Assembly: GCA_050734155.1 (NCBI GenBank)
Contig: JBOHUD010000100.1
Span: forward strand, 16,835 to 80,834
DNA from: Candidatus Dormibacteria bacterium
GTDB taxonomy: Bacteria; Chloroflexota; Dormibacteria; Aeolococcales; Aeolococcaceae
DNA: 64,000 nucleotides
Direction: 5' to 3'
Positions within the stretch are counted from its first letter, which is position 1. Each line of letters begins with the position of its first letter. Position numbers and translations under genes: made by a program. The notes beneath the pieces were generated by a model. The model had not been told where the DNA came from. It did no database searches and worked only from the letters and a program-made list of their open reading frames with translations. Below are positions 13,193 to 27,458 of the stretch, one piece after another.

Positions 13193-13220
13193 CGGTGTGG
13201 CCGCAGGACGAGAGGGGAGA

Positions 13221-14138
13221 GTGAAGCGGCATCCGGGGAGGGGGGCAGCGCAGTGCGCGATCGGAGCTCTGGCGCTCCTGGTCGGCGCCTCGGTTGTGGC
13301 GTGCAACGCGCCCAGTGGAGGTGCTTCCGCAACCCGGTCGAGCGCCACTCAGCCGACGCAGCCGGTGCCGGCGCCCGGCTCCAGCCGGCTCACCTGGCTC
13401 ATCGCCGCGTCGGCGCTGACCCGCCTGCGCAGCCTCGACGCCCAGTCGCCGCTGGCGGCGCGGTTCTTCGACAACGCCGGCACCGATGTCCTGGTCGGCC
13501 CGCGGGCCGCGGGCATCCCGAGCGGCTGGCGAAGCGTTCCCACCGCGGGATTTCGCAGCTACGCGGACCTGGCCAGCGCCATCGCCGCGGGAACGCTCGA
13601 TGCGTCGATCACCACTGTCCTCTACGACCCGGAAGCGTGGCAGTTCACACCCATCGCCGAGCAGCGCGATCCCGGACGGTACGCGCAGCTGGCCGCCGAC
13701 CTGTGCCGCAGCCACCACCTGCGCCTCATCGTCACGCCTGCGGTCGATCTCACCCAGGTCCTCTCCCCGGGGGCGGCCGACGCGCGCTCCGCCTTTCTGT
13801 CGCTGGGGATCGCAGGACAGGCGGCTCGGGCCGGGGACACCGTGGTGATCCAGGCGCAGCGCTACGAGGCCGACACCGCCCAGTACCGCGCCTTCGTCGT
13901 CCAGGCCGCTGCGCAGGCGCGAGCCGCGAACCCCGGTGTCACCGTTCTTGCCGGTCTGAGCACGGGCCCGGGGGGGAAGCCCGTCAACGCCGGCGACCTC
14001 TACAGCGCGTACCAGGCGACGCGGGACTCTGTGCAGGGCTACTGGCTCAACATCCCCGCGCAGGGAGCCGACTGCCCGACCTGCACCCAGCCCAGGCCGG
14101 ACGTCGCCGCCGGCTTCCTGCAGATGGTGTCGCGGTGA
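13221..14138 (+). CDS. lipoprotein, possible TIM-barrel glycan hydrolase-like protein
   Basis: GTG at 13221 follows GAGAGGGGAGA. The signal ends in the lipobox LVGASVVAC. The mature part (…TVLYDPEAWQFTPIAEQ…HHLRLIVTPAVDL…VVIQAQRYE…YWLNIP) alternates beta-strand and helix like a glycoside-hydrolase-like barrel. Only the lipoprotein call is solid. Confidence 0.55.
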   Translation: MKRHPGRGAAQCAIGALALLVGASVVACNAPSGGASATRSSATQPTQPVPAPGSSRLTWLIAASALTRLRSLDAQSPLAARFFDNAGTDVLVGPRAAGIPSGWRSVPTAGFRSYADLASAIAAGTLDASITTVLYDPEAWQFTPIAEQRDPGRYAQLAADLCRSHHLRLIVTPAVDLTQVLSPGAADARSAFLSLGIAGQAARAGDTVVIQAQRYEADTAQYRAFVVQAAAQARAANPGVTVLAGLSTGPGGKPVNAGDLYSAYQATRDSVQGYWLNIPAQGADCPTCTQPRPDVAAGFLQMVSR

Positions 14139-14150: not shown

Positions 14151-15392
14151 TCAGCTGTTGATGCTCACACTTGCCGTCATCCCGGGCAGCGCCTGTTTGG
14201 GTTTGGCGGCGAGGTGGAAGACGACGTCGTACTCCACCTGGCTCGAGCCCTGCACGGCCTGGGGGATGATCTGAGCCAGGGTGACGGTGGCGCCGGTGTC
14301 GGGCAGCGCGTTGAAGGTGGCCGTCGCCGCCTGCCCGACATGCAGCCGCGAGACGTCGGACTCGGCCACCTGGGCGAGCACCACCCAATTCCCATCGGCT
14401 GCCAGCCGGATGACCGGGGACAGCTGGTTGCCCTGCGTCGGCGGCACCGGCGCCGTCGGCGCGAACAGCTGCAATGGTGAGGAGTTGGTCACCAGCGACT
14501 GCGGTCCGGCGTACTTCTGCACTCCGGAGTCGCCGACGATCTCGCCGACGGAGCCGGCCACCTCGCTGATCACTCCCGACACCGGTGCCCTCAGGACCAT
14601 GCTGTCGAGTGCCTGCTGGTCGATGGCGACCTGGGCCTGGGCTGTGGCCACGTTGGCCTGCGCCGCGGCGAGCTGGGCGCCCTGGTTCGCAGGCTGCGCC
14701 GCGGTGACAGGACTGCCCTGGGCCATGGCCAGGTCGAGCTGATAGAGGCTGACCTGGCGCTGGGATTGGTCGGCTGAGGCTCGAGCTGCGGCAAGTGCGT
14801 GCTGGTAGTCGGCGGTGCGCTGCGCGATCGCCTGGCGATCCTGGGCCACCTGGCGCGAGTTGGAGATGCATTCGGTCTGCTGAGGGCCTCCCGAGCAGAG
14901 CGATGCGGACGCCTGCTGGTCGCCGCCCAGGGTTGTCTGGGCGTCGCGGATCGATTGCTGTGCCTGGACGATGCTGAGGTTGTTGACGGACGCCATGTCC
15001 GCCGCCGCCTGCTGCGCGCCGGCCAGCTGCGCCTGGATGGCCTGCACGGTGAAGCCGAGCGCATTGGTCTGGGTGCCGCCCGCCTCCACGTACTGAAGGT
15101 TGGCCTGGGCTGCGGCCAGCTCGGCGCGGGCCCCGTCCAGCTGCAGCTGGGCTGCCGCTGCGTCCTGGGCGGCCAGGACCTGGCCGGCCACGACATGCTG
15201 ACCGACGCTGACACTGATCTGCTCGAGCGCGCCGCGATCCTGGAAGCTCAGGGCCAGCTGTTCTGCCGGCTGGAGCACGGCGGCGAAGGTTCGACTGCCG
15301 GTGAAGTAGGCGGCATGGAGGGTGAAGGCGAGGGCGCCCAATGGGAGAAGGAGCAAGCCTGTGGCTGTGCCGAACTGCCGTCCATTGAGCAT
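14151..15392 (-). CDS. HlyD/membrane-fusion-protein (periplasmic adaptor) family protein
   Basis: Start at MLNGRQFGTATGLLLLPLGALAF (TM anchor). Then LSFQDRGALEQISVSVGQHVVAGQVLAAQD (lipoyl half), a long Ala/Gln coiled coil, LRAPVSGVISEV (second lipoyl half) and a beta-barrel tail ...ALPGMTASVSI. No transporter partner gene is adjacent. Confidence 0.75.
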   Translation of the reverse strand: MLNGRQFGTATGLLLLPLGALAFTLHAAYFTGSRTFAAVLQPAEQLALSFQDRGALEQISVSVGQHVVAGQVLAAQDAAAAQLQLDGARAELAAAQANLQYVEAGGTQTNALGFTVQAIQAQLAGAQQAAADMASVNNLSIVQAQQSIRDAQTTLGGDQQASASLCSGGPQQTECISNSRQVAQDRQAIAQRTADYQHALAAARASADQSQRQVSLYQLDLAMAQGSPVTAAQPANQGAQLAAAQANVATAQAQVAIDQQALDSMVLRAPVSGVISEVAGSVGEIVGDSGVQKYAGPQSLVTNSSPLQLFAPTAPVPPTQGNQLSPVIRLAADGNWVVLAQVAESDVSRLHVGQAATATFNALPDTGATVTLAQIIPQAVQGSSQVEYDVVFHLAAKPKQALPGMTASVSINS

Positions 15393-15419
15393 CGCGTCAC
15401 CCCTCCGCAGCGGATCGTG

Positions 15420-15449
15420 AGTGTAGGAATGCTCAATCCCGACAGTCAA
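15420..15449 (-). promoter_or_regulatory. sigma70-like promoter for the adaptor gene (TTGACT-18 nt-TACACT on the minus strand)
   Basis: The minus strand reads TTGACTgtcgggattgagcattccTACACT about 25 nt upstream of a GGAGGGG Shine-Dalgarno and the ATG at 15392. The -35 hexamer overlaps the stop codon of the upstream response-regulator gene. Confidence 0.4.
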
Positions 15450-16150
15450 GAATTGTCCCGGTCCGCCTCCCTGATCGCATCCAGCGACCACGCCGCCTTC
15501 TGAGCGGCGGCCACGGCGGCGATCTGGGAGCTCACCCCCAGCTTGGACAGCACCCCGCGAACCTGGCTGCGCACCGTGGCCTCGGACACGAACCACCTGG
15601 CGGCGATGGTCTGCACCGAAAGGCCGTCGCACAGGGCGGCGAGAACCTTGGACTCGCGCGGCGTCAGGGCGCGGAAGGGTGCAAGCCGCTCGCGCACGCG
15701 CCGGCGATGGTCGCGCAGCTCACCGAGCAACCGCGACCGCTGCTGCTGGCTGATGATGGCGCGCAGGTTGGCGGCGTCGAGCACCACCCGGAGCAGCTCC
15801 TCGAACGGTCGCGTCTTGTCGACGATGCCGTGGGCGCCGAGCTCGATGCACCTGGCGTTCTGCATCTGGTTGGAGGAGCCGGTGACGATGATGACCCGGG
15901 CTCCGGTCGCGACCAGGGGCGCCACCAGGTCCTCGCCGCGGCCAAAGCCTCCCAGGTGGAGGTCGAGCAGGACGACATCGGCAGGGTCGGCGCGCAGCTG
16001 GCCGAGCACGCTCCGAGGGTTGGTGAGAACCGGCACGTCCACCTCGAGGCCCTCCGCGGTGAGCGCCGCACGGAGGGTTTGCGCCAGCAACTCGTGGTCG
16101 TCCACGATCGCGACCCGGGGCCGCACGGGCGGTACCTGAGGGTCGGTCAC
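15446..16150 (-). CDS. response regulator, NarL/LuxR family (REC + LuxR HTH)
   Basis: RVAIVDDHELLAQTL...VVLLDLHLG...IIVTGS...K (REC Asp/Thr/Lys pattern) and C-terminal LTPRESKVLAALCDGLSVQTIAARWFVSEATVRSQVRGVLSKLGV. Its start overlaps the kinase gene by 4 nt. Confidence 0.88.
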   Translation of the reverse strand: MTDPQVPPVRPRVAIVDDHELLAQTLRAALTAEGLEVDVPVLTNPRSVLGQLRADPADVVLLDLHLGGFGRGEDLVAPLVATGARVIIVTGSSNQMQNARCIELGAHGIVDKTRPFEELLRVVLDAANLRAIISQQQRSRLLGELRDHRRRVRERLAPFRALTPRESKVLAALCDGLSVQTIAARWFVSEATVRSQVRGVLSKLGVSSQIAAVAAAQKAAWSLDAIREADRDNS

Positions 16151-17778
16151 ACGGAGGTGTCAACCCCAGCCGTGGCCGTCGGCGCCGCAGCGCGTTCGGG
16201 TTCCCGCCCCCAGTCCCGGGGAGCTGCGCCCGCCACGACGCCGATCTCGATTCCCCTGTTGCCGTCGCCTCGGGCCATTCCGGCGACGCTCTCCGCCGCC
16301 GGCAGCTCGACCACGAAGCAGGCGCCCCCTCCGCGGCTGTCGCGCACCTCGATCCTCCCGCCCATCTCGGCCAGCAGGCGAGCGCAGACGAACAGGCCGA
16401 GGCCACTGCCCCTGGTGGCCGCGCTGGTGCGACCGCGCTGGCCGCGGAGAAAGATCTGCGCCCGAGCCTCATGCGGGACCCCGGGGCCTTGATCCTCGAC
16501 GGTGAGCACGACCCTGCCGGCCTCGAGGTGGCCGGTGACGATGATCGGGCTGCCCGGCGCGTGGCGGCGAGCGTTGACCAGAAGGTTGTGCACCACCGTG
16601 GCCACCTCGGAGGGCCGGCCCCGGGCCACCAGGTCGCCGACCAGGAAGGAGATGTCGGCGCCGTGGCTGCGCTCGGCGGCGATGAGCGGCGCCAGGACCT
16701 CCACCGGCCGGAAGTCGGTGGTTTCGCCAGTTTCCGCGGCCGCGGCGGGCGCCCGGATCAGGTCCTCGAGCCGCGACAGCTCACTGGTCAGCGCCGTCCC
16801 CAGCGTCTCGCGGGTGATCTCATCCAGGTCATCCTGGTGGCGGCGCAGGGTGAGGTCGGCGGCGCGGATGGTGGCCAGTGAGGAGCGCACATCGTGGAGG
16901 CGCTCCTCCAACCTGGCGGCCTCGGCCTCGCGGGCGCCGAGGCTGGCCCTGAGGTCGGTGGCGACACGGCGGTTGGCCTGGGTGTGGGCCCGCAGCACCC
17001 AGCGCGCCTCCGCCTCGCTGCCCAGCAGGGCGCCGGCAGCGGCCAGGACCAGCACGCAGGCCTCGACGAAGACGACGAGGTTGATCTGCTGTGCCGACGC
17101 CAGCGCGAGGGCGGCGACCACCACCTTGAGGAGGGCGTAGACGGCCAGCCACTGCGGAGTGGCCTGACGCGACCTCGCATACCAGGCAGCGGTGAGAGCG
17201 AGCAGCCCGCCCCAGACGACCAGGGACACCGAGAGGGCGGCGGTCGGATCGCTGTCCCAGGCGAGCACTCCGATCGCCACGGCCAGGAGCACCGAGCCGG
17301 CGGCGACGAGGCCGCTCTGGAGCAGGCTGCCCGCCGGCGCTGCCGGCGCCTCGCTCTGAGCGCGCCAGACCAGCACCGCGACAACCGCGACGACTGCAGA
17401 CGTCACCATCGCGCCCCAGGCGGGGCTCAGGGAGATGTCGAAGAGCGGCTGGGGCTGGCGCAGCGGCACAGTGATGCCGAGCAGCAGCGCGGCAGACCCG
17501 GCATAGGCGGCCGAGCGGTCATGGACCAGCCGCCAGCGGAAGAGCGCGAACAGCCCGGCGCCGGCGAGCAGGAGCAGCTGAAGGATCTGCAGGACGCCGA
17601 GATCCTGCTCCCGCCCCAGTCCGAGCAGTGGGATCAACAGCACCCAGGCCAGGGAAGCAAAGATGCCGAGAAGAGCCAGGTGGATGAGCCGGCGAGCCGC
17701 CAGGGGAGGTGCCGACCACATCGCCGGGCGTCCACGTTCGATGTCCGCTGCTCCCTGGCCGCGGAGTGACGCCAACAT
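16147..17778 (-). CDS. multi-TM sensor histidine kinase (no evident extracytoplasmic domain)
   Basis: About 8 hydrophobic helices, then an H-box LEERLHDVRSSLATIRAA and N, G1 and G2 boxes (LLVNARRHAP, VEDQGPGV, GSGLGLFVCARL). The start is uncertain: ATG at 17778 or 17721. The track ORF begins at 17901. Confidence 0.8.
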   Translation of the reverse strand: MLASLRGQGAADIERGRPAMWSAPPLAARRLIHLALLGIFASLAWVLLIPLLGLGREQDLGVLQILQLLLLAGAGLFALFRWRLVHDRSAAYAGSAALLLGITVPLRQPQPLFDISLSPAWGAMVTSAVVAVVAVLVWRAQSEAPAAPAGSLLQSGLVAAGSVLLAVAIGVLAWDSDPTAALSVSLVVWGGLLALTAAWYARSRQATPQWLAVYALLKVVVAALALASAQQINLVVFVEACVLVLAAAGALLGSEAEARWVLRAHTQANRRVATDLRASLGAREAEAARLEERLHDVRSSLATIRAADLTLRRHQDDLDEITRETLGTALTSELSRLEDLIRAPAAAAETGETTDFRPVEVLAPLIAAERSHGADISFLVGDLVARGRPSEVATVVHNLLVNARRHAPGSPIIVTGHLEAGRVVLTVEDQGPGVPHEARAQIFLRGQRGRTSAATRGSGLGLFVCARLLAEMGGRIEVRDSRGGGACFVVELPAAESVAGMARGDGNRGIEIGVVAGAAPRDWGREPERAAAPTATAGVDTSV

Positions 17779-17891
17779 CGCCTTCCTTCCCCTTCCCGAG
17801 TCAAACGCCCCGCGTCTGAGCGGAGTATAGCCTGCTCCGGGATCGACCGTCCGGCGGGGTCGGTTGCCCCTCCGCCCCTCGACCAACTCAG

Positions 17892-17977
17892 ATTTCATCA
17901 ATTCTGATGATGTGCCGGCCCCCAGTCGCTGCGCATGATCGCTTCAATCGGAACGGTGCCGCGGTGCACCGCTCACC
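17892..17977 (+). promoter_or_regulatory. conserved non-coding element, copy A (in the divergent spacer between the two two-component operons)
   Basis: My hand alignment of 17892-17977 with 23700-23785 gives 67/86 identical positions with no gaps. Two near-perfect blocks are present (ATTTCAnCnATTnTGATGATGTG and TGCGCATGATCGCTnCAATCnGAACGG), plus a 6-bp hairpin. Confidence 0.55.
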
Positions 17978-18071: not shown

Positions 18072-18842
18072 GTGAGCGCGTTGTGGAGCTTGCGAGGCGC
18101 GCAGGGGACCATCCGGGAGTCCAGTGGGGGCACCGGCGGGATCCCGGCAGAGGCGGCGGCGGCGGTCTCGGTGCTGGTTGTCGAGGACCACGAGATGCTG
18201 GCGGAGACGCTGGTGCTCGGTCTCTTTGCCAGGGGGTTCGACTGCACCGTGGCCCAGCTCACCGGCCCCGAGACGGTGCTGACCCAGGCGGCGCGGTTGC
18301 GTCCCGCCGTGGTGCTGCTGGACCTGCAGCTGGGCGACACCGACGGCCTGGATCTGATCCCGGGGCTGCGGGCGCTCGGCGCCAGGATCCTGGTGGTCAC
18401 GGGATGCACCCATGAGCCCCGGGTGGCGGCGGCGCTGGCGCTGGGCGCCAGCGGGTGGGTGAGCAAGTCCGAGCCCTTTGAGCGCCTCCTCGAGGCCGCC
18501 GAATCCGTGGCACGCAACCGGCCGGTGCAGGACCGCGCGCGACACGAGGAGATGATCGAGCTGGGGGCGGATTGGCTGGAGACCACCCGCGAGGCGAGGC
18601 GGCGCATCGCGCAGCTCACCGCCCGCGAACGTGAGGTGCTCTGGGCGCTGTCCGAGGGGGAGAGCGCCGCGGACATCGCCAGGGCGCTGGTGGTGTCGCT
18701 GGGCACGGTGCGGTGCCACATCCAGGCGATCCTCGGCAAGCTCGACGTGTCCAGCCAGCTGGCGGCGGTTGCCTACGCCAGCTCGCTGCTCACCTCGGAT
18801 GGGCCTCCACGTCGCGATGGGCGGCTCGGAGGGCAGCGATGA
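18072..18842 (+). CDS. response regulator, NarL/LuxR family
   Basis: VLVVEDHEMLAETLVLGL...VVLLDLQLGDTDG...ILVVTG (REC) and LTAREREVLWALSEGESAADIARALVVSLGTVRCHIQAILGKLDV (LuxR HTH). The start is uncertain (GTG at 18072 or 18171). The track start at 17907 is rejected because it lies inside the conserved non-coding element. Confidence 0.82.
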   Translation: MSALWSLRGAQGTIRESSGGTGGIPAEAAAAVSVLVVEDHEMLAETLVLGLFARGFDCTVAQLTGPETVLTQAARLRPAVVLLDLQLGDTDGLDLIPGLRALGARILVVTGCTHEPRVAAALALGASGWVSKSEPFERLLEAAESVARNRPVQDRARHEEMIELGADWLETTREARRRIAQLTAREREVLWALSEGESAADIARALVVSLGTVRCHIQAILGKLDVSSQLAAVAYASSLLTSDGPPRRDGRLGGQR

Positions 18843-20440
18843 CGGTGCTGAGCGCCGTCAGGCTGCTCACGCGCTCCACCCCGGACTCGTATGCCGGCCC
18901 CGACCGGCGCACGATCATCGCCAAGCTCGCCAGCGAGAACACCCCCAGGGTGGTGGGGGGGATGCTGGCGGGGGTGGTCGTGCTGCCGCTGGTCGGGGTG
19001 GGCCTGTTCAGCATCGCACCCGGCCTGTCCGTGGCCGCCGCCTCCGTCGGCGCTGCGGATGCGGCCCTGGTGGCATTCCTGGCCACGGCTGTGATCCTTC
19101 TGCTTCGCTGGCGCCTGGTTGGTGCCGCGGCCAGCGCCCTGCTGTCGGTGGCGATGCTGTTGACGGGGCTGCTGTTGGTGCCGGCGACCCACTTCGGCGC
19201 AGCCGCGCCCAGCTACGCTGTCGCGCTGCACCTGACCTCGGTGGCGTTCATCCTCGCTGCCTGCATCGGCGCCGTCGCCCTCCCCGTGGTGGTCGCGGGT
19301 CTCCGCCCGACCCTGCTCATCGTGGCCGCGCTCGGTGGTGCGATCGTCGCGGCGGTGCCGCTGGCGCTCCTTCCATTTGCCGGGGTGCGGGTCGGGGGCG
19401 ACGGCATCACCGCGGCCTCGGCGATTGAGGGCCTCGGCTGTGCTGCGGTCGCGATCGCGCTGCTCAACGGTGGCGTTCGCAGCGGACGGGTGCTCCTCGC
19501 CGGGGCAGGTGTGGTGCTGCTGGCCATCGCGGGCGCCCACGCCACACCTCTGTCGTCGACCGGCGCGTGGAGCGCCCTGCCCTCACTGCTCCTGCTGGTC
19601 GGGGCTGTGGAGTTCCTGCTGCTCGCCGGCACCGACCTGAAGTCCACCCTCGATGTCGTGGTGCACCACGATGTGCGTGGCCGCCGCCGCTGGGTGGCCG
19701 CCGAGACCGAGCTGGATCGGGTTCGCCGGATCCACCGCGGCCGCAGTCACGACCTCACCAGCATGCTCGCCGCCATGGACGGGACGCTGCTCGTCCTCTC
19801 CCTCGAGCGCGGCACGCTCGACGCCGAGGAGCGCAGCCGGCTCATCGCTGCGGTTCGCGACCAGATCCAGCAGCTGCGCACCCTGCTGGCCGGGGACGGC
19901 GGCGCGGCGCGGCTCTATGACCTCGCCGACCTGCTCGGCGGCATCGTCGCCCTGCATGCGAACGGAGCTCAACGCGTGCACGCCGAGGTCGACCCGTCGC
20001 TGCCGATGCACGGCCACCCCGATCGGGTGATGCTGATCGTCAACAACCTTCTGGACAACACCACCGCCCATGCCCCGGGCGCCAGGGTCACCCTGCGCGC
20101 CGCCCGGGCGGCCAGCGCCGACGGCGACATGGTGGAGATCGCGGTCTCCGACGACGGCCCCGGGCTCGCAGACGCCGAGCTGGAGAGTGCCTTCGAGCCC
20201 GGCTGGCGGGGCAGCGCGGCCACCGCGGTGGCGGGGAGCGGGCTGGGGCTGGCGCAGTGCCGCGAGCTGGCCGAAGCCGAGGGAGGCCAGATAACCCTGG
20301 GCACCGCTGATCCCGCCGCCAGCCCAGGTCATCGGGGCTTGACGGCTCGGATCCTCATCCCGGTGGGGCCGGCCCGCCCGGCTCACGCGAAGATCGGCAA
20401 TTTTGCCGATGCCCTGCTCTCCCGGGGCAACTACAACTGA
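18839..20440 (+). CDS. multi-TM sensor histidine kinase, paralogue of 16147..17778
   Basis: The ATG at 18839 overlaps the regulator's TGA (ATGA). About 9 hydrophobic helices, then an H-box RIHRGRSHDLTSMLAAM, N box LLDNTTAHAP, G1 SDDGPGL and G2 GSGLGLAQCREL. Confidence 0.82.
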   Translation: MTVLSAVRLLTRSTPDSYAGPDRRTIIAKLASENTPRVVGGMLAGVVVLPLVGVGLFSIAPGLSVAAASVGAADAALVAFLATAVILLLRWRLVGAAASALLSVAMLLTGLLLVPATHFGAAAPSYAVALHLTSVAFILAACIGAVALPVVVAGLRPTLLIVAALGGAIVAAVPLALLPFAGVRVGGDGITAASAIEGLGCAAVAIALLNGGVRSGRVLLAGAGVVLLAIAGAHATPLSSTGAWSALPSLLLLVGAVEFLLLAGTDLKSTLDVVVHHDVRGRRRWVAAETELDRVRRIHRGRSHDLTSMLAAMDGTLLVLSLERGTLDAEERSRLIAAVRDQIQQLRTLLAGDGGAARLYDLADLLGGIVALHANGAQRVHAEVDPSLPMHGHPDRVMLIVNNLLDNTTAHAPGARVTLRAARAASADGDMVEIAVSDDGPGLADAELESAFEPGWRGSAATAVAGSGLGLAQCRELAEAEGGQITLGTADPAASPGHRGLTARILIPVGPARPAHAKIGNFADALLSRGNYN

Positions 20441-20539
20441 TCCATGTGCCGGTGCGGATGATTCCGTCCGGCTGAGGATATTTCCGCCCACCGGTCGGCA
20501 GGAAACCGAGACGGGGGCGGGCAAGAGAGGAGGTTCTCT

Positions 20540-21004
20540 ATGAGAATCGGGATTCGCAAGCTGCTGCTGCTCGGAGGCAGTGCGGCAGTACTATCGACGG
20601 CCGGGTTTGCCTACATGGCAACCAACACCGTCACTCCGAGCAATGCTGGTGTGGGTTCCGGCGTCGTGTCAGGGTACAGCGTTGATGTCCTCTCATACGG
20701 CAACGATCCCGCCGGCTGCTACGATGGGTCCAATGCATACTGCACGGGCAGCCAAGATCTGGCGACCGCCACATCGGTGACCGTCAAGTTGACCACGCAA
20801 AGCCCCGGCCAGAATGTGGCCCCGACTACGGTGTATGCGTACGCCATCGGCCCCGGTACCCAGATGCATGTGGGACACAGCAACCAGTGCACACCGGCCA
20901 ACACCTGGAACACCAGCACTGGCACGGGCGAGTTCACGTGCGTGTTCAACCCCGGGCTGGCGAAGGACCTGCTGGACCACGTCGCCATCGACGCTTCCCA
21001 GTAG
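20540..21004 (+). CDS. small secreted Cys-containing protein with SipW-like signal region (fibre-locus protein 1)
   Basis: Strong RBS AGAGAGGAGG 7 nt upstream. MRIGIRKLLLLGGSAAVLSTAGFAYMATNTVTPSN resembles the GGT-x-A-x-F-x-D SipW-dependent signal class. The mature part is beta-rich and Thr/Gly/Asn-rich, with 4 Cys. Confidence 0.7.
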   Translation: MRIGIRKLLLLGGSAAVLSTAGFAYMATNTVTPSNAGVGSGVVSGYSVDVLSYGNDPAGCYDGSNAYCTGSQDLATATSVTVKLTTQSPGQNVAPTTVYAYAIGPGTQMHVGHSNQCTPANTWNTSTGTGEFTCVFNPGLAKDLLDHVAIDASQ

Positions 21005-21050
21005 GCGGATCAGTCGGATAGGATTTGTACGCGAGTTGCCGGGCACGAGC

Positions 21051-21626
21051 ATGAGCACCTACCACGCTGATCTCGTGTCCCGGCGCTCGCGCGTCTCCCC
21101 CCGTCCGACGCGCCTCTTCTCGCTCGCCGCTCTGCGGCCGCGCCACTCCCGTATCCTCGCCGCGGTTGCAAGTGGCATCCTAGCCCTGGGCGCGTGGTCG
21201 CTCCTGGCGCCGCCCCAGCTTGGCGGTTCGACCTCGTTCGTCATAACGACGGGGATCAGCATGCTGCCGAACTTTCACGCCGGGGACGCCGTCCTGCTAC
21301 GCGCAGAGCAGCGCTACAGCGTCGGTGAGGTCGCCGGGTATCACAACGGTAATCTGAACGTCATCGTCATGCACCGCATCGTCGCCGTGCGCGGCGATCG
21401 CTATGTCTTCAAAGGCGACAACAACAACTGGGTGGACGGCTACGACCCGACGGCGGACCAGATCGTCGGCGTTGAGTGGGCGCACATGCCGAACCTCGGC
21501 AGTGTCCTCCTCTCGCTACGCACCCCCGCGATCGCCGCCTTCATCCTTGGAGCGCTCTGGCTTTTCATGTTCTGGCCGCGGTCGAGGTCGCGACGCCAGC
21601 GTAGGAGGCGACGGCATGCCCGCTGA
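21051..21626 (+). CDS. sipW: signal peptidase I, archaeal/ER (S26B, SipW) type, copy 1
   Basis: An N-terminal TM, then ITTGISMLPNFHAGDAVLL (catalytic Ser in the SM-x-P box), VIVMHRIVAV (catalytic His box), FKGDNNNWVD and a C-terminal TM. This is the SipW-like architecture, not the LepB type. Confidence 0.82.
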   Translation: MSTYHADLVSRRSRVSPRPTRLFSLAALRPRHSRILAAVASGILALGAWSLLAPPQLGGSTSFVITTGISMLPNFHAGDAVLLRAEQRYSVGEVAGYHNGNLNVIVMHRIVAVRGDRYVFKGDNNNWVDGYDPTADQIVGVEWAHMPNLGSVLLSLRTPAIAAFILGALWLFMFWPRSRSRRQRRRRRHAR

Positions 21627-22797
21627 TCAACAATTGGATCGACGGAGCTCTGGCAGAGCGCCCGGTGGCAGGCTCGACGTCGTCGTCGTCTGCGCGGTGT
21701 TGGCGATCTGCGCGGCCATCCTGGCGGGGGTCGCCTGGAGCCGCCCGACCACCGCGACCTCGAAGCTGACGTACACGCAGTCAGGGCAACTGGCATACAG
21801 TGCACCAGCGAGTCCGAAGTCTGTGTACGGGAGCGCCGGGGTGAGCACCGGCGAGCCGGTCTACGGCTCGGTGGTGCAGGCTCTCGCCCTCACCTATTCC
21901 TACCAACTCAGGGCCGATCTTCCAGCTGCTGTGAGCGGCACCGAGCAGCTGGTCGCCACCGTCAGCAACGGACAGGGACTGTCGCGCAGCATCCCGCTCC
22001 AGGCGACCGTGACGCCTTTCACCGGCCCGGTTTTCGCGGCCACGGCCAGACTGGACATGGCCGTGCTACGAGGCGTGGCGGCAGCCTTCGATCAGGTCGG
22101 GGGCAATGCCGGCACGGGCATGTACTCGGTCGCGATCGCCCCGTCCGTGAACATCAGCGGTCGGATCGGGTCCGCACGAGTGAATGCGTCGTTCGACGCG
22201 CCCATCGACTTCACCTACACCGCGGGCGACCTCCTCCCCGGAAGGGCGGGCGCCGCGCCGGGCTCTCAGGCGCAACCGAGTCTGGCCGCCAGCTCGAACG
22301 GCTCGGTGACTGTGCCCGCGGGCCAGGTCGCCACGCTCCTCTTCGGGCTCTCGGTGAGTGAAGTCCGAATCGCCTCCCTGGTGCTACTGCTCGTCGCGGT
22401 CCTGCTCGGGGGGATCGCCGGCTGGCCGGTGCTGCGTCAGGCCACCTCCGATGATGAGCCCGCGCGCATCGCTGCCCGGTACGGTTCTCTGATCGTCGAA
22501 GCCGAGGCGGTGGCTGCGCATTCGGGGGTGGTTGTGGTGGAGCTGGACTCGTTCGACGATCTGCTCCGGGTCGCGCGCCGCCTCGAGTGTCCGATCCTGC
22601 ACTGGGCGGAGGCGGGCGACATCTATGCCGTCGTCGACAGCGGCACGCTGTACCGCTCGCGGGATCGGCTACTCCCTGAGCCTGCGGTGCGCAGCCATCC
22701 CGCCAACCATTCCGGCGGGAACGGGAGTCAGGCCGGTCGGGACCACCTCTCGCGAATGTATCGTGAGGTACCGCGCCGCACGGCCAGGCGTCGGTGA
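21616..22797 (+). CDS. bitopic membrane protein (TM - about 300-aa extracytoplasmic beta-rich domain - TM - about 110-aa cytoplasmic domain), DUF5305-like
   Basis: ATG at 21616 follows GTAGGAGG and overlaps the peptidase gene by 11 nt. TM1 is VVVVCAVLAICAAILAGVAW and TM2 is IASLVLLLVAVLLGGIAGWPVL. The cytoplasmic tail is ...IAARYGSLIVEAEAV...VVELDSFDDLLRVARRLECPILH. The DUF5305 assignment is from memory of SipW-neighbourhood families and is unverified. Confidence 0.65.
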   Translation: MPADQQLDRRSSGRAPGGRLDVVVVCAVLAICAAILAGVAWSRPTTATSKLTYTQSGQLAYSAPASPKSVYGSAGVSTGEPVYGSVVQALALTYSYQLRADLPAAVSGTEQLVATVSNGQGLSRSIPLQATVTPFTGPVFAATARLDMAVLRGVAAAFDQVGGNAGTGMYSVAIAPSVNISGRIGSARVNASFDAPIDFTYTAGDLLPGRAGAAPGSQAQPSLAASSNGSVTVPAGQVATLLFGLSVSEVRIASLVLLLVAVLLGGIAGWPVLRQATSDDEPARIAARYGSLIVEAEAVAAHSGVVVVELDSFDDLLRVARRLECPILHWAEAGDIYAVVDSGTLYRSRDRLLPEPAVRSHPANHSGGNGSQAGRDHLSRMYREVPRRTARRR

Positions 22798-23534
22798 TGG
22801 CTGAAGGGGGTCGAGCGAGCATGGAGCACACTGCTGAGCCTCAGCAGAGCCGTCGACGACCTGGCGTGCTCGCCTGGGTCGCACTGGCCACCGGCGCGGC
22901 ACTGGTCGCGGGGATGGCGCTCACCTCGATCCTGGGGGCCACGCCCGGGTATGCCGCGTCCTCGTGCGACTCCTCAGGATCACCGGTCACGGTACATTAC
23001 GAGGCGGCTCCCGGAAGCTATCCCGGAGTCACCTTGGGCGTCGCGGTCTCCAGCGTCGACCTGTCGAACTTCCCAGCCGCGTGCAATGGCACGGCCGTCA
23101 AGCTCGAGGTGCGCGGCAACAGTGCCGGCGATCCGTCGATTGCACCGGCGGCCGATCGGTTGCTGAGCACCGCCGATTCGACTGTCAACCCCTGCACCCA
23201 GAAGCCGCTCCCCGCCCCGGGAGTGGTGACCAACGCCAGCATCTCTCTCTCGCTCTGTGCGTCAGGCGGGCCGGCCGGCTATTTCAGCGTGCACGACATC
23301 ACGTTGCTGAGCCTGTTCCTTGCGCAGGCGAGTGGCGGCGTCGCCGTGACCACCACCCCGAGCCCGAGCCCCAGCGCCAGTCCCACCGGCGGGGTGGCTG
23401 GAGTAAGCGTTGTGACGCCATCCACCGGGGGCGCCCTGCCGGTCACCACCGACCTGCTCGGGGTTGGCGTCGCGCTGATGCTCGTCGGGGGATTTGCGGT
23501 CGCGGCCGCTTGGTACCGGCGCCGCGCGGAGTAG
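22794..23534 (+). CDS. secreted surface protein with Thr/Pro/Ser linker and C-terminal sorting-signal-like anchor (LPVTT-TM-RRRAE)
   Basis: GTGATG overlap with the upstream stop. Signal peptide ...LVAGMALTSILGATPGYAAS, then TTTPSPSPSASPTGG. It ends GGALPVTTDLLGVGVALMLVGGFAVAAAWYRRRAE. Confidence 0.7.
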   Translation: MMAEGGRASMEHTAEPQQSRRRPGVLAWVALATGAALVAGMALTSILGATPGYAASSCDSSGSPVTVHYEAAPGSYPGVTLGVAVSSVDLSNFPAACNGTAVKLEVRGNSAGDPSIAPAADRLLSTADSTVNPCTQKPLPAPGVVTNASISLSLCASGGPAGYFSVHDITLLSLFLAQASGGVAVTTTPSPSPSASPTGGVAGVSVVTPSTGGALPVTTDLLGVGVALMLVGGFAVAAAWYRRRAE

Positions 23535-23699
23535 CGCCCAGGCTGCAGGGTCTGCTGTGGCGCATGGTGCCCGGCAGCAAGTGTCCTCGTCGCGACGGAT
23601 GCATCCGCCCGACTGACACGGGCAGGCGTAGTCTGCTGATGTGCGATCCACCACCCGCGGTGTTGCGGTGTTGAGGACTTTGGGAGCAAAGCTCTTCGT

Positions 23700-23785
23700 A
23701 TTTCACCGATTTTGATGATGTGACTGTCACGAGAAGGTGCGCATGATCGCTGCAATCAGAACGGCGCCGTGACGCGCCGCTCATC
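23700..23785 (+). promoter_or_regulatory. conserved non-coding element, copy B (leader/promoter region of the tasA-like gene)
   Basis: 78% identical, ungapped, to 17892-17977. It ends 52 nt upstream of the ATG at 23838. The ATG ATG that opens the track ORF in copy A is followed here by TGA, so the element is not protein-coding in that frame. Confidence 0.55.
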
Positions 23786-23837
23786 AGGAAGTGCAGCCGC
23801 AAGCGCGGCCATTGTCATGTAGGGGAGGAGACACTCG

Positions 23838-24566
23838 ATGAATCACAAGATCCTGAAGGCCAGCCTGGCCGGGGGCGCCTTCATCGCCCTGGTCGCCGGC
23901 GGCACCACCTTCGCGGCCTTTTCCGACTTCGGCAGCATCAACAACAACACCGTCGGTGCGGGCTTCCTCAAGCTCGACCTGAACGCCGGTACCGGCTCGG
24001 TGCCGCTCGACTTCGGCAACCTGGCGCCCAACAACATCCACTCGCAGCGCACGATCTGGGTGGCGAGTAACGACGGCAACTCCGTTCCGCCGGCGAATCT
24101 CACCCTCACCTTCCAGCACCTGAAGGAGATCCCTGGCCCGTGCAACACCAGCATGGGCAAGGCAGTCGCCGAACAGAGCATCAACAACGGCTGCGCCGAT
24201 CCAACCACCGGTAACCCGACGGTTGGCGTGCTCTCCAAGGTGCTGAACTTTCAGGTCGCGTACTACCCATCGATCACCGATCCACAGACCTGCCAGTCGT
24301 ATCTCTCGGGCCACTACCCTGCGTACAACTCGATCTTCGCGGATGCGCCTGGCGACATGACCACCAGTGCCGCCGGCGCCGGTACCCCGCACGTGCTGTA
24401 CCAGCAGGGCAGCACCACGGCACCGCTGGTTCTCCTGCCGGGCCAGGGCGTCTGCATCGGCATCGACACGTACTGGGGCAGCAATCAGGGCTTGGTCCCC
24501 GACAACGCGGCCCAGGGTGACTCGCTCACCTTCGATGCCCGTTTCGACCTGACCCAGGCTCCCTGA
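23838..24566 (+). CDS. tasA: TasA/camelysin-family fibre subunit (SipW-dependent signal peptide)
   Basis: RBS GGGGAGGAG. IALVAGGTTFAAFSDFGSINNNTVGAGFLKLDL...FGNLAPNN... and C-terminal AQGDSLTFDARFDLTQ parallel B. subtilis TasA (LALVGGGTWAAFNDIKS..ATFASGTLDLS..NLSNLKPGD..., ...QGNSIKLQFSFEATQ, recalled from memory). Confidence 0.85.
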   Translation: MNHKILKASLAGGAFIALVAGGTTFAAFSDFGSINNNTVGAGFLKLDLNAGTGSVPLDFGNLAPNNIHSQRTIWVASNDGNSVPPANLTLTFQHLKEIPGPCNTSMGKAVAEQSINNGCADPTTGNPTVGVLSKVLNFQVAYYPSITDPQTCQSYLSGHYPAYNSIFADAPGDMTTSAAGAGTPHVLYQQGSTTAPLVLLPGQGVCIGIDTYWGSNQGLVPDNAAQGDSLTFDARFDLTQAP

Positions 24567-24589
24567 GTCCTGTACTGATCCGCAACAAC

Positions 24590-24614
24590 GGGGCCGGCCA
24601 GATCGGCCGGCCCC
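24590..24614 (+). terminator. perfect 10-bp GC hairpin after the tasA-like gene (intrinsic terminator/attenuator candidate)
   Basis: GGGGCCGGCC-agatc-GGCCGGCCCC starts 24 nt after the stop codon. The downstream tract GCCTTGCGATTCC is only weakly T-rich, as is often the case in high-GC genomes. Confidence 0.5.
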
Positions 24615-24656
24615 GCCTTGCGATTCCACCGCATAGAGAAGAGGACGAGTGAGCAG

Positions 24657-25223
24657 ATGACCCGGCGTCTCGTCAAGGCGGCGACAACTGTCGTGATGAG
24701 CCTCCTGCTCGCGGCCATCATCGCCTCGCTGGTGCTGCTCACCGTCGTCCCCAGGGTGATGAACGGCGCCGCGCTCAACGTCCTCACCGGCAGCATGCGG
24801 CCGGGCATCCCCCCGGGATCGATCGTCATCGACAGGGCGGTGGACACCCGCACCCTGCAGGTCGGCGACATCGTCACCTACCAGGTGGCACCCGGCCGGG
24901 CGGAGTACATCACCCACCGGATCGTCGCCATCAACACCAACACCACCCCGGTGACCTTCACCACCAAGGGTGATGCCAACCGCGGCGCCGACGTGAATCC
25001 GGTCCCGGCCACCGCCATCCGCGGCGAGGTGGCGTTCCACCTGCCCTTCCTGGGCGCCATTCGCGACAGCATCCAGTCGGCCGGCGCGCGATCCACCGCC
25101 TTCGTCGCGGTCCTGGTCGGGCTCGGCCTGTATGCCATCTTCCAGCTGCTCAGCGCCCTGCGTGACCGGCGCCGGGCCACTCGCACCGGCAGCGGCATCG
25201 CGCCCGCGGGGGACGGCGCCTGA
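24657..25223 (+). CDS. sipW: signal peptidase I, archaeal/ER (S26B, SipW) type, copy 2
   Basis: MTRRLVKAATTVVMSLLLAAIIASLVLL (TM), NVLTGSMRPGIPPGSIVI (Ser box), EYITHRIVAI (His box), TKGDANRGAD and a C-terminal TM FVAVLVGLGLYAIFQLL. I prefer the ATG at 24657 to the track TTG at 24618, which abuts the hairpin. Confidence 0.82.
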   Translation: MTRRLVKAATTVVMSLLLAAIIASLVLLTVVPRVMNGAALNVLTGSMRPGIPPGSIVIDRAVDTRTLQVGDIVTYQVAPGRAEYITHRIVAINTNTTPVTFTTKGDANRGADVNPVPATAIRGEVAFHLPFLGAIRDSIQSAGARSTAFVAVLVGLGLYAIFQLLSALRDRRRATRTGSGIAPAGDGA

Positions 25224-25927
25224 TGGCCTCCCAGCCCCGCAGAGCCGTGCTCACCCTGGCAACGGTCGTCTTCGCCGCCGCCGTGGTGGCGGTGCCGATC
25301 GCCCGGACCCATGCGGCGCTCTCGGACTTCGCCGTACTGCACTCGTCCGCGAGCGCTGCGGTGTGGGGACCGAAGGACAACGACTCGCAGGACAACGACT
25401 CGCAGGACAACGATGCGCAAGACAACGACGAGAACAGCGAGAGCGATCACCAGGGCATCCAGAACCAGCAGAGCACGATCCACAGCCCCCAGGCCGAGAC
25501 CGCAGCGCCGTTGGTGCCGGTCGGCACCACCGCCGGAGGCCCTGGCGGGTCCGGCGACTGCCTCACGGTGCCCACCGGGCTCGCCTCCAGCGCCGCCGCG
25601 CCGCTGCAGAGCTGGCCGCTGACGCTGCTGGTGATGTATGCCGGCACCAACCCGCTGGCCACCAGCGGCTTCACCGGCTCCAACGGTGTGAAGGCCACCC
25701 CGCCGGCGCTCAGCGTCGATGGCACGGTGACCCCCGGCGCCCACCCCACCAGCCTCACCAGCAGCGCTGACCCGGCCCACAGCAACGGGCTGACGCTCTC
25801 GTACACGGTTCCCACCGCGCTCCACGACGGCAGGCTGCACGTGCTGACCATCACGGCCTTCGAGGACGACCACAGCACCCCGCAGGCCTGCACCGCCACC
25901 TTCTACGTGTCCTCGGTGGGGCCGTGA
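25223..25927 (+). CDS. secreted protein with SipW-type signal (..THAALSDFA..) and acidic DND(S/A)Q repeat (fibre-locus accessory protein)
   Basis: TGATG overlap with sipW copy 2. VVFAAAVVAVPIARTHAALSDFAVL mirrors the AAFSD motif of the tasA-like gene. It is followed by DNDSQDNDSQDNDAQDNDENSESD and a Thr/Ser/Pro/Gly-rich beta-type domain. Confidence 0.7.
   Translation: MASQPRRAVLTLATVVFAAAVVAVPIARTHAALSDFAVLHSSASAAVWGPKDNDSQDNDSQDNDAQDNDENSESDHQGIQNQQSTIHSPQAETAAPLVPVGTTAGGPGGSGDCLTVPTGLASSAAAPLQSWPLTLLVMYAGTNPLATSGFTGSNGVKATPPALSVDGTVTPGAHPTSLTSSADPAHSNGLTLSYTVPTALHDGRLHVLTITAFEDDHSTPQACTATFYVSSVGP
25376..25435 (+). repeat. four tandem 15-nt units (GACAACGACTCGCAG x2 perfect, then two diverged units) inside the CDS
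   Basis: Read directly: gacaacgactcgcag gacaacgactcgcag gacaacgatgcgcaa gacaacgacgagaac, encoding DNDSQ DNDSQ DNDAQ DNDEN. Confidence 0.9.
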
Positions 25928-26661
25928 CCCGCTCGTCCCGCAGGCTGCTCGCCGCCGTCGCCGGGCTGTTCCTGGTGGTCGGCCTCTCCGCCGGCCTGGC
26001 GACGCGGGTGAACGCCGTCGCCAGCAGCAGCGCTCTGCTCCTCCATGTGCCCGGCGATCCGGCGGGCTGGACGGCAGCCCCGACCCACCCCGTCCTCAAC
26101 TTCTCCCGCCTGGCCCCGGGCGGCAGCGTATCGGGTGAGGTGGATGTGCAGAACACCAGCACCCAGGCGGCTTCGCTGCAACTGGGGGCGCTGGGCGTGC
26201 ACAGCGACAAGAACTGCGTCGCCGGAGGGCCGGCCGGTGTCGGTCCATGCGGCGCCGGCAATGGGTCACTCGACCGGCTCCTGGTCTTCACCGTACGGCT
26301 CGCCTCGGCATCGACACCGCTGTGGACGGGCTCCATCCTCGACCTCGAGAAGGGAGTGCCGATCACCTCCTCCATGGCCGGGCCATCGGCGCTGGCGCTG
26401 GTCCTCGGAGCGTCGCTCCCGACCAATGTCGGCAACGTTGCCGAGGAGGACTCGCTCTCCTTCGGATTGCGCATGACCCTGACCGAGGCCGGCGGCGCCA
26501 CCGCGACGGGTGTGCTGGGCATCACCACGCCGCCGGTGCCCTTCACCGGCGCGCTGCTGCTCCCGTCGATCCTCCTCGCCGTGGGGGTGATGTCCGCGGG
26601 GGCGCTGCTGATCCTGTTCGCAACCGAGCGCCGCGGCCGGCGCCAGACGGCGAGCCTCTGA
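25924..26661 (+). CDS. TasA-like secreted protein with C-terminal sorting-signal-like anchor (VPFTG-TM-RRGRR)
   Basis: GTGA overlap with the upstream gene. Signal ...LSAGLATRVNAVAS. NFSRLAPGGSVSGEVDVQNTS and EEDSLSFGLRMTLTEA echo the TasA N- and C-terminal motifs. It ends TTPPVPFTGALLLPSILLAVGVMSAGALLILFATERRGRRQTASL. Confidence 0.72.
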   Translation: MTRSSRRLLAAVAGLFLVVGLSAGLATRVNAVASSSALLLHVPGDPAGWTAAPTHPVLNFSRLAPGGSVSGEVDVQNTSTQAASLQLGALGVHSDKNCVAGGPAGVGPCGAGNGSLDRLLVFTVRLASASTPLWTGSILDLEKGVPITSSMAGPSALALVLGASLPTNVGNVAEEDSLSFGLRMTLTEAGGATATGVLGITTPPVPFTGALLLPSILLAVGVMSAGALLILFATERRGRRQTASL

Positions 26662-27017
26662 GCTCAGCCGCCTATGATGGATCGCGTTGGCGCTCACGCG
26701 GACATGGAAGGGCACGGTGACCAAGCCGGATCAGCCAGACGATCCCATCGCTGAGGAGAGCAGGCGCGCCCGCCAGGACGCCGACCGGAGCCTGCTGCCC
26801 TCCAACGACGGGCTCGGACCGGGCGCAGGCGAGACCCCGGTGGCTGTGGTGACCGCGGGGCGATCCCGTCGCCAGCGCAAGGCCCCCGACGTCACCGCCA
26901 CTCCGAGCCTGGGTGCACCCCCTCGCCGACCGGCTCGACCGGACTTCCGCTCCAGTCAGCTCGACGGTGCGCCGGACGAGACGGAGCCCGACCAGCCCGA
27001 CCAGACGGACTGACCGG

Positions 27018-27458
27018 TCAGGCCTCGCCCTCGCGGCTGTCCTCGGGGCCCGTCGCGGCGGCGGCCGCTTTGGCGAAGCGCAGCGCCGCGGAGTTGATGC
27101 AGTAGCGCTGCCCGGTGGGGGCGGGGCCGTCGTCGAACACGTGGCCGAGGTGTCCACCGCAGCGGGCGCAGCGCACCTCGGTGCGCGGGATGATCATCTT
27201 GAAGTCGCGGTGCTCCTCGATGAGCTGGGGGTCGGCGGGAGCGGTGAAGCTGGGCCAGCCGCTGCCGGACTCGTACTTGGTCTCCGAGTCGAAGAGTTGA
27301 GCCCCGCAGCCGGCGCAGAGGTACTGGCCGGCAGCCTTGACGTGCGCGTACTGGCCGCTGTTGGCTCGCTCGGTCGCGCCGCGTCGGAGCACGGCGTACT
27401 GCTCGGGGGTGAGCAGCTCACGCCATTCCCGGTCTGACCTGGTGATTCGCTCGGGCAT
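27018..27458 (-). CDS. msrB: peptide-methionine (R)-S-oxide reductase
   Basis: GQYLCAGCGAQLFDSETKYESGSGWPSF...RTEVRCARCGGHLGHVFDDGP shows the MsrB CxxC zinc pairs and catalytic motif. Confidence 0.92.
   Translation of the reverse strand: MPERITRSDREWRELLTPEQYAVLRRGATERANSGQYAHVKAAGQYLCAGCGAQLFDSETKYESGSGWPSFTAPADPQLIEEHRDFKMIIPRTEVRCARCGGHLGHVFDDGPAPTGQRYCINSAALRFAKAAAAATGPEDSREGEA

Follow-up and report, generated by a model that had tools for sequence, protein, structure and literature searches.

Could eight adjacent genes of an uncultured soil bacterium represent a single surface-fiber system that has been duplicated, or do they belong to two systems that have come to lie side by side? The genes occupy positions 20540–26661 of the window analyzed here, a 64-kb stretch (64,000 nucleotides, nt) from the high-GC genome of a Candidatus Dormibacteria bacterium (assembly GCA_050734155.1, contig JBOHUD010000100.1). 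A sequence-only reading of this DNA had proposed a duplicated TasA-type fiber or pilus system built as two parallel modules. We find that the locus consists of two distinct, unrelated cassette types placed side by side, of which only the second is TasA-type. The two cassettes are independently mobile, each apparently making a cell-attached protein fiber with its own signal peptidase and regulator. Our account, which we hold with moderate confidence, is that the locus is a composite of two distinct and separately regulated surface-fiber cassettes and that the second most likely forms a TasA-type fiber by donor-strand exchange.

The genes are named P1 to P8 in order from 20540 to 26661, with P1–P4 forming cassette A and P5–P8 forming cassette B; the comparison loci and contigs fetched from relatives are designated L001–L047. 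All eight open reading frames (ORFs) are present where they had been reported, on the + strand, with a third-codon-position GC content (GC3) of 0.77–0.93, and all have orthologues that are conserved elsewhere. Furthermore, as had been described, P4 and P8 both end in a motif, a transmembrane (TM) segment, and an Arg tail. The proposed duplication, however, did not survive comparison of the proteins themselves. The two signal peptidases, P2 and P6, share only 29% identity. Profile comparison of P1 with P5 revealed no similarity past the signal region, and the predicted folds of the two proteins differ, with an Ig-like sandwich modeled for P1 and a TasA jelly roll for P5. P4 and P8 are alike in the tail only, their bodies being without profile similarity. 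A recent gene duplication was rejected on these grounds.

The two cassettes also occur on their own. Cassette A comprises a response regulator, a histidine kinase, P1, an S26B-like peptidase, a DUF5305 protein, and sometimes an anchored protein, and it stands alone among unrelated genes, in the order regulator-kinase-P1-P2-P3(-P4), on metagenomic contigs found via P3 homologues (L021–L026, L028, and L029). The regulator beside P1–P3 in L021–L029 is orthologous to that of the window (E = 1e-64 to 1e-95), as are the kinases of the stand-alone loci (E = 1e-100 to 1e-160), and the cassette A loci lack P5–P8. Cassette B comprises a TasA-like subunit, a SipW-type peptidase, a variable protein with a TasA-like N-terminus, and, as its conserved last gene, an anchored TasA paralogue (P8). 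The order P5-P6-(variable gene)-P8 is found alone in L005–L018 and L030–L047, usually with a two-component system nearby. Its hosts include many Actinomycetota, among them the cultured Planosporangium thailandense (GCA_011947195.1), which carries a complete cassette. The kinases beside P5-like genes (L005–L008, L010, L012, and L015) had, where checked, their best window match in the kinase at 16147–17901, which belongs to cassette B. Consequently, the differing peptidases and folds, the likeness limited to the tails, and the stand-alone occurrence all point to the juxtaposition of distinct cassettes rather than to duplication. Moreover, the GC3 of P1–P4 (0.77–0.83) is below that of P5–P8 (0.87–0.93) and below that of most neighboring genes, consistent with a more recent arrival of cassette A.

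Two further observations concern the genomic setting of these cassettes. In L029 (metagenome-assembled genome GCA_021847925.1), a regulator-kinase-P1-P2-P3 unit without P4 (4780–7093) sits within a cell-division and cell-wall cluster, with a penicillin-binding protein (PBP) transpeptidase on one side and Mur ligase, MraY, FtsW, and MurG on the other. In several Actinomycetota, extra SipW-like peptidases are present (L005, 6735–7817; L006, 8163–9685; L007, 6930–9693; L008, 14290–15983), up to three per locus. In L006–L008, a secreted protein with another SipW-class motif (GASASFTDS or GTGAYFTDS) adjoins the extra peptidase beside cassette B, and such stacking of peptidase-substrate modules seems to be common.

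How might each cassette be controlled? Cassette B has a two-component system on the − strand, consisting of a response regulator with a receiver and a LuxR/GerE helix-turn-helix domain (15446–16150; 58.6 bits to Response_reg and 46.3 bits to GerE in Pfam) and an adjoining multi-TM histidine kinase (16147–17901; 82.5 bits to HATPase_c), the start of which is 17778 in the public gene call and 17901 in the longest ORF. Cassette A has its own system on the + strand, a LuxR/GerE response regulator recognized by its Pfam matches (18072–18842; longest ORF from 17907) and a multi-TM histidine kinase (18839–20440; 65.3 bits to HATPase_c; longest ORF from 18713). A repeat search of the window uncovered an 84-nt direct repeat, the copies of which are 79% identical and 5808 nt apart. 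Copy 1 (17892–17975, + strand), with the palindromic element TCATCAATTCTGATGATG (17895–17912), fills part of the gap between the divergent kinase B and regulator A, upstream of the latter. Copy 2 (23700–23783, + strand), just upstream of P5, has the palindromic element TCACCGATTTTGATGATG (23703–23720) at 118 nt from the P5 ATG. The two copies bracket the 5.8-kb cassette A together with its two-component system. In L010, the intergenic region between the kinase and P5 contains the shared element in a single copy.

The repeat begins with an 18-bp element, TCAYCRATTTTGAYGATG, which occurs twice in the window against 0.01 times expected in a motif search. In most cassette B loci with upstream sequence, the element is also present ~100–230 nt ahead of the P5-like gene. 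A related palindrome, ATCGGCAA-TT-TTGCCGAT (20393–20412, + strand), is located 130 nt upstream of the P1 ATG, in the 3' end of kinase A. Of the eight other cassette A loci, seven (L021, L022, L024, L025, L026, L028, and L029) also have it ahead of their P1 orthologue, and it was not found in L023; the element upstream of the regulator is absent in stand-alone cassette A loci. Taken together, a palindrome, ATCnnCAATTTTGnnGAT, of the generic form ATCnnCAA-TT-TTGnnGAT, precedes the first structural gene of both cassette types by ~100–230 nt, on the strand of the gene, in most loci with upstream sequence. This palindrome is likely the operator of the paralogous LuxR/GerE response regulators. The 84-nt repeat, in turn, would be a control region that was duplicated when cassette A entered the divergent intergenic region of cassette B.

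Could the eight genes nevertheless work as a single integrated machine, in which both peptidases and both anchors make one heteropolymer? The closest relative, a genome also labeled Candidatus Dormibacteria with 72% P5 identity, has kept the gene order P3–P8, as the sequence-only reading would lead one to expect, and the retention of this arrangement in a second lineage at 70–90% amino-acid identity speaks for such a machine. In addition, the duplicated 84-nt control region could place both units under the cassette B regulator. On the other hand, each cassette is complete and common alone. Beyond the closest relative, the P5 relatives are mostly from Actinomycetota. P1–P4 were not directly upstream of the P5 gene in any cassette B locus that has several kb of upstream sequence and comes from outside the window lineage. 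Furthermore, the signal motifs vary in step with the peptidase type of their own cassette, and the P1 fold differs from the P5 fold. We consider a single machine to be quite improbable and retain the view of two separate cassettes.

Of the two, cassette B is the one that can be tied to a known fiber family. P5 (23838–24566), the TasA-like major subunit, is a protein of 242 amino acids (aa) that starts with a putative SipW-type signal, GGTTFA↓AFSD (the arrow marks the predicted cleavage site here and below), followed by a donor-strand-like N-terminal segment (residues ~27–42) and a jelly-roll core with four conserved Cys residues. The motifs that had been quoted from it (GGTTFAAFSD, GFLKLDL, and NLAPNN near the N-terminus and QGDSLTFDARFDLTQ at the C-terminus) are all there, as are those of P1 (STAGFAYMATN) and P7 (THAALSDFA), and P1, P5, and P7 each appear to have a SipW-class signal, as had been described. 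We found 49 homologues of P5. Its AlphaFold2 (AF2) model, built with 31 homologues, had a mean predicted local distance difference test score (pLDDT) of 73, with residues 1–43 disordered and a confident beta-rich core (above 70). When this model was compared with the Protein Data Bank (PDB) using Foldseek, Bacillus subtilis TasA (5of1/5of2) provided the sole matches at E ≤ 1e-3, with a probability of 0.99–1.0 and a best E of 8.5e-5. The earlier description of this gene as TasA/camelysin-like is borne out by the modeled jelly roll and by TasA as its best match, but not by the hidden Markov model (HMM) scores, which fall below their cutoffs and reflect the N-terminus only: 15.9 bits to PF12389 Peptidase_M73 (cutoff 22.5; residues 14–65 alone), 18.2 bits to the TasA model NF046066 BioflmMtrxTasA (cutoff 450), and 18.6 bits to TIGR04088 (cutoff 19), with the SipW-type peptidase P6 encoded 90 nt downstream. 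Across the family, at E ≤ 0.01, TIGR04088 was matched by 24 of 31 members and NF046066 by 23 of 31, all sub-threshold.

The pattern of conservation is also of the kind expected for strand exchange. Conservation in both the P5 and the P1 families is strongest in the N-terminal and C-terminal strands, with peaks at residues 21–50 and 221–240 in P5. In TasA, the donor strand is A28–S41, and at the protomer interface D31–S41 pairs with 220–230 (PMC10151520). The P5 N-terminal segment, disordered in the model, is highly conserved, and an invariant aromatic residue follows the predicted cleavage site throughout the family; an aromatic residue in this role has been called the 'aromatic clamp' of donor-strand complementation (DSC) fibers (bioRxiv 10.64898/2026.01.04.697558).

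Is it conceivable that P5 is no structural subunit at all and is instead a secreted camelysin-type metalloprotease or the precursor of a ribosomal peptide? The weak Peptidase_M73 match suggests it, and so do the names given to homologues at JGI ('Peptidase_M73' and 'predicted ribosomally synthesized peptide with SipW-like signal peptide'). However, that match is sub-cutoff and covers the signal region only. The family has neither an HExxH motif nor an invariant His, and P5 as a metalloprotease was rejected for this reason. Moreover, a protein of this size with a confidently folded jelly-roll core, whose best structural match is a TasA fiber subunit, is a poor fit for either role, and we give these possibilities very little weight in comparison with that of a fiber subunit.

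P6 (24657–25223) is clearly a SipW-type S26B (archaeal/ER-type) signal peptidase, scoring 95.7 bits on TIGR02228 (cutoff 51.85) and 81.6 bits on the Bacillus SipW model (cutoff 190). The Ser/His/Asp catalytic motifs (G-SM-P, HR, and GD-N) are intact in the P6 and P2 families alike, and both have N- and C-terminal TM segments; the two peptidases are S26B-like, as had been described. P7 (25223–25927), a secreted protein and a candidate TapA-like or tip protein, belongs to no family in Pfam or NCBIfam searches. Its N-terminus (THA↓ALSDFAVLHSSASAAVW) mimics the signal and donor-strand region of P5, which hhalign aligned over the N-terminal 31 columns only (probability 67%, E = 5e-5), and after it come a linker of acidic DNDSQ repeats and a C-terminal domain. 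The repeat (DNDSQ DNDSQ DNDAQ DNDEN; residues ~50–75, 25370–25440) is conserved but variable in the closest relative and may be a flexible or cation-binding linker. At the P7 position of L013, L014, L015, and L047 are proteins that share the N-terminus T(Y/F)AA(F/W)SDFA but are otherwise unrelated, and many of their bodies contain RTX-type calcium-binding repeats. In Planosporangium, the protein at this position has a different N-terminus.

P8 (25924–26661), the candidate wall-anchored base subunit, is related to P5 in the opposite way. Aligned by hhalign with the P5 family, it gave a probability of 97.8% and an E of 1.3e-12 over 156 columns (P8 32–192 against P5 38–242), and on this profile evidence it is a true TasA-type paralogue, as had been supposed. 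A homology search with P8 returned only three near-identical proteins, its low-complexity words having saturated the candidates, and the orthologues were therefore taken from the fetched loci. P8 and these orthologues have ordinary AxA cleavage sites that place the mature N-terminus 5–6 residues ahead of the first core strand, compared with about 16 residues (AFSDFGSINNNTVGAG) at the matching place in P5. Thus, P8 is without the N-terminal donor-strand segment (P5 residues about 27–37).

P8 ends in VPFTG, a TM segment, and RRGRR. In its orthologues, the corresponding motif is LPFTG (L006 and L013), LPRTG (L014 and L017), LPVTG (Planosporangium thailandense), LAFTG (L005), or LASTG (L047), each preceding a TM segment and an Arg-rich tail. 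LAXTG is the typical motif for actinobacterial class E sortases. The tails of P8 and its orthologues, the LAXTG variant included, would represent tripartite sortase sorting signals. Similarly, each of the five distinct P4 orthologues ends in a Pro/Thr/Ser linker, [TV]P[SAL]TG, ~10 residues, a TM segment, and RRR.

Cassette A is built from other parts. P1 (20540–21004) is a small secreted Ig-like protein and the candidate fiber subunit of this cassette. It has a SipW-class signal region (ATAGFAYMATNTV) and belongs to a family of 74 representative clusters at E ≤ 1e-3 that has no match among the Pfam and NCBIfam families. The conservation profile shows a conserved N-terminal segment and C-terminus around a hypervariable middle. 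The AF2 model of P1 (48 homologues; pLDDT 77.7) predicts a seven-strand Ig-like sandwich at residues 46–153, with residues 21–45 unstructured, and this unstructured N-terminal segment is the highly conserved one. A 'G↓F' in P1 was considered as a type IV pilin site and rejected, as neither a hydrophobic helix after it nor a Glu at +5 is present. P2 (21051–21626) is the S26B-like signal peptidase of cassette A and resembles TafD; its TIGR02228 score of 51.5 bits is just under the cutoff, its family conserves G[IV]SMxP, HR, and GDNN, and its C-terminal TM segment is followed by an Arg-rich tail.

P3 (21616–22797) scored 29.2 bits on PF17231 (DUF5305), for which the gathering cutoff is 29, and most of its 41 homologues also match this family; the second S26B-like peptidase of the locus is therefore paired with a DUF5305 protein. 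P3 had been described as bitopic, but it has two TM segments, at residues 15–44 and 238–275, and cannot be so. This agrees with the published DUF5305 architecture, in which two TM segments flank an extracellular domain and a cytoplasmic C-terminal domain is present besides (bioRxiv 10.64898/2026.01.04.697558). In the cassette A relative L027, an S26B peptidase domain and DUF5305 are joined in one ORF (7806–9566), which is 586 aa long at its maximum and 521 aa in the gene call. This supports joint action of the two, and P3 is a putative accessory subunit of the P2 peptidase. P4 (22794–23534, probable start 22821), the cell-anchored protein of cassette A, starts with an ordinary AxA signal and a globular domain with four Cys residues; a Pro/Thr/Ser linker, a [TV]PxTG motif, a TM segment, and RRR follow, and it has no family match in Pfam or NCBIfam.

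How could these proteins assemble? In cassette B, both P5 and P7 would be cut by P6 at a conserved site, A↓A(F/L)SD, which would expose an aromatic-led N-terminal strand. P5 would then form the shaft as a head-to-tail polymer, the N-terminal strand of each subunit entering the next. P7, which would bring a strand on a different body, may start or cap one end of the fiber, in the manner of TapA or of a tip adhesin. P8, a TasA body with a groove only and an ordinary signal, would accept the last P5 strand and terminate the fiber at the cell, where its LPXTG-like signal would allow a housekeeping sortase to fix it to the wall, or would at least hold it in the membrane. Cassette A would be a Taf-like unit, in which P2 with its DUF5305 partner P3 processes the small Ig-like P1, P1 polymerizes via its conserved N-terminal segment, and P4 serves as an anchored partner that is optional. 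The LuxR-type regulator of each cassette would switch that cassette on from the palindrome upstream of its first structural gene. The present arrangement would have arisen through entry of cassette A, complete with its two-component system, into the intergenic region between the two-component system of cassette B and P5, with duplication of 84 nt of this control region.

A number of observations weigh against this model. Donor-strand exchange in fibers of P5 and P8 is a step that we infer by analogy. The matches of P5 to TIGR04089, TIGR04088, the TasA model, and Peptidase_M73 are all sub-cutoff and confined to the N-terminal 50–65 residues, and the TM-scores between P5 and TasA are low (0.33–0.41). 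Foldseek matched P1 in the PDB to generic Ig V-set domains only (E ≥ 0.016), and the P1, P8, and P5 families, searched as profiles against PDB sequences, had no meaningful match. The window motifs VPFTG (P8) and TPSTG (P4) are non-canonical. NCBIfam sortase-substrate and LPXTG models gave single faint matches only on the P8 and P4 families, and no sortase gene was detected either in the 64-kb window, by a TLxTC motif scan and Pfam, or in any fetched locus; covalent attachment to the wall is thus something that we infer. P4 is absent from some cassette A loci (L024, L026, and L029) and cannot be essential. With regard to control, the palindrome could be a promoter element instead of a regulator site, the 84-nt repeat could result from recombination between similar promoters and not be an insertion scar, and a promoter scan of 20300–27100 detected no sigma-70-like sites.

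Some of these points invite a different explanation, namely that P5, and perhaps P1, forms released matrix fibers or gels, as Bacillus TasA, BsaA, and AbpX do, while P4 and P8 are ordinary membrane-tethered proteins that serve, for example, in nucleation without covalent attachment. The missing sortase genes, the departure of VPFTG and TPSTG from LPXTG, and the loci that do without P4 would all fit, and the TapA and BsaA systems function without a sortase. However, P8 is specifically a TasA paralogue that lacks the donor strand and is conserved as the final gene of the cassette, and its orthologues have a canonical LPXTG or LAXTG motif with a TM segment and an Arg tail, a combination that is hard to explain without anchoring. 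We therefore regard released fibers as unlikely and continue to favor fibers that are attached to the cell.

The cell-attached model can be set against several known systems. Like Bacillus subtilis tapA-sipW-tasA, cassette B encodes a SipW-type (S26B) peptidase of its own beside a subunit of the TasA fold whose signal reads G-G-T-x-A↓A-F-x-D, as well as a minor protein (P7 here, TapA there) that has only the N-terminal strand region of the major subunit, and the N-terminal and C-terminal strands are the conserved parts. It differs in that sequence similarity in the mature domain is below HMM detection, that a P8 paralogue without donor strand and with an LPXTG-like tail is added, and that there are an adjacent dedicated two-component system, four conserved Cys residues in P5, and a high-GC host. 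The Clostridium perfringens sipW-bsaABCRSD locus similarly combines SipW, a polymerizing secreted subunit, accessory secreted proteins, and a two-component system (PMC7395162, PMC11580942). In contrast to the fibers proposed here, BsaA polymers are reported to be covalent, with intermolecular isopeptide bonds; BsaA is mostly released from cells, needs no sortase, and has no LPXTG motif.

Sortase-assembled, SpaA-type pili of Gram-positive bacteria have a basal subunit with an LPXTG-type signal for wall attachment. The candidate base P8 resembles it in this respect. However, P5 and P1, the candidate shaft subunits, lack a sorting signal, and a pilus-specific sortase was not found in the window or in the fetched loci; polymerization would therefore proceed by non-covalent strand exchange and not by transpeptidation.

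For cassette A, the closest parallel is the haloarchaeal Tafi system, which comprises the pilins TafA/C/E, the anchor TafF, the S26B peptidase TafD, the DUF5305 protein TafG, and the regulator TafB, and which is modeled as tip, adapter, shaft, and C-terminally anchored TafF (PMC11821415, PMC12337348). In cassette A, likewise, the genes of a TafD-TafG-type pair overlap, the secreted subunit is small and Ig-like, a partner is anchored at its C-terminus, and a regulator gene lies next to them; the fusion in L027 has a counterpart in the peptidase-DUF5305 fusions noted in some bacteria (PMC11821415). On the other hand, the host is bacterial and has a two-component system as the regulator; P2 contains two TM segments instead of four; and, in profile comparison, the P4 anchor has no pilin-like N-terminal domain. 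For P1, neither a sequence match nor a specific structural match to the Taf pilins (TafA/TafE) was detected, Foldseek with the P1 model having given no link to Taf, ABP, or thread pilins. A twin-arginine (Tat-type) signal, too, is not evident on P1, where the window protein has RK and 23 of 48 relatives have RR.

The locus logic is also that of the AbpX-like bacterial loci, which contain a fiber subunit, minor subunits, tip proteins, a dedicated type I signal peptidase (SPase I), DUF5305 as the SPase accessory, histidine kinases, and LPXTG cell-wall anchors predicted to join the fiber by donor-strand complementation; AbpX polymerization depends on calcium sites (bioRxiv 10.64898/2026.01.04.697558). 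The P5 and P1 families are not assigned to the AbpX clade, and the peptidases of those loci are described as ten-TM, compared with the two TM segments of P2 and P6. Bioinformatic studies have already described TasA-superfamily loci with a dedicated SPase I, DUF5305, tips, LPXTG anchors, and histidine kinases, and the TasA cluster includes Actinomycetota (bioRxiv 10.64898/2026.01.04.697558; PMC11821415). The novelty is therefore smaller than the sequence-only reading had assumed. Its statement that no such system has been characterized experimentally in a high-GC lineage is in line with our literature search, which found no experimental study of a TasA/SipW-type system in Actinobacteria/Actinomycetota.

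Within the locus, the public gene calls coincide with the ORFs described here for all genes but P4, which is called from ATG 22821 and not from GTG 22794; the orthologues use the former as well. P1 and P2 are separated by 46 nt, P2 and P3 overlap by 11 nt, and P3 and P4 overlap by 4 nt from the GTG or are 23 nt apart from the ATG. A gap of 303 nt separates P4 from P5 and one of 90 nt separates P5 from P6, whereas P6 and P7 overlap by 1 nt and P7 and P8 by 4 nt. The two gene runs recognized earlier are thus real, but start-stop overlaps link the genes at only three or four of the six within-run junctions. Shine-Dalgarno-like sequences are found 5' of P1, P3, and P5. A promoter and terminator scan of 20300–27100 yielded nothing above shuffled expectation, and short inverted repeats in the intergenic regions were unremarkable. 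Next to the cassette B two-component system, on the − strand, are genes for a 727-aa family-2 glycosyltransferase (11165–13348; Glyco_tranf_2_3 and Glycos_transf_2, with a weak chitin-synthase-like match) and a weakly HlyD-like protein (14151–15632); these may represent exopolysaccharide genes co-located with the fiber genes.

What, then, does this locus add? Earlier work on Bacillus TasA, haloarchaeal Tafi, and AbpX-like loci has proposed the same general architecture, and the gain is incremental. What is new are the specific families, including the unannotated P1 family, and the strand-less paralogue with a sortase-type signal as the conserved last gene. To these we would add the putative shared operator and a composite two-cassette arrangement in which a control region appears to have been duplicated. 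Tentatively, and with more doubt than confidence, one could go further and see in the Actinomycetota cassettes a hybrid class of pilus, with a shaft of TasA-fold or Ig-like subunits joined non-covalently by donor-strand exchange, a strand-less base covalently attached to peptidoglycan via a housekeeping sortase, its own S26B peptidase, a LuxR-type two-component switch, and a shared operator, the duplicated control region producing a joint regulatory cascade in the present locus.

TasA-superfamily fibers are emerging as a biofilm scaffold common to bacteria and archaea. If the roles proposed here are correct, this locus and its relatives would provide the full parts list for such a fiber, namely a tip that has only the strand, a shaft, and a base of the sortase type that lacks the strand, together with a candidate operator and two-component switch for matrix production. 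The small Ig-like P1 family, tied to the S26B-DUF5305 pair, could help to explain the role of DUF5305. Planosporangium thailandense, as a cultured carrier of a full TasA-type cassette, would be an organism in which these proposals can be tested.

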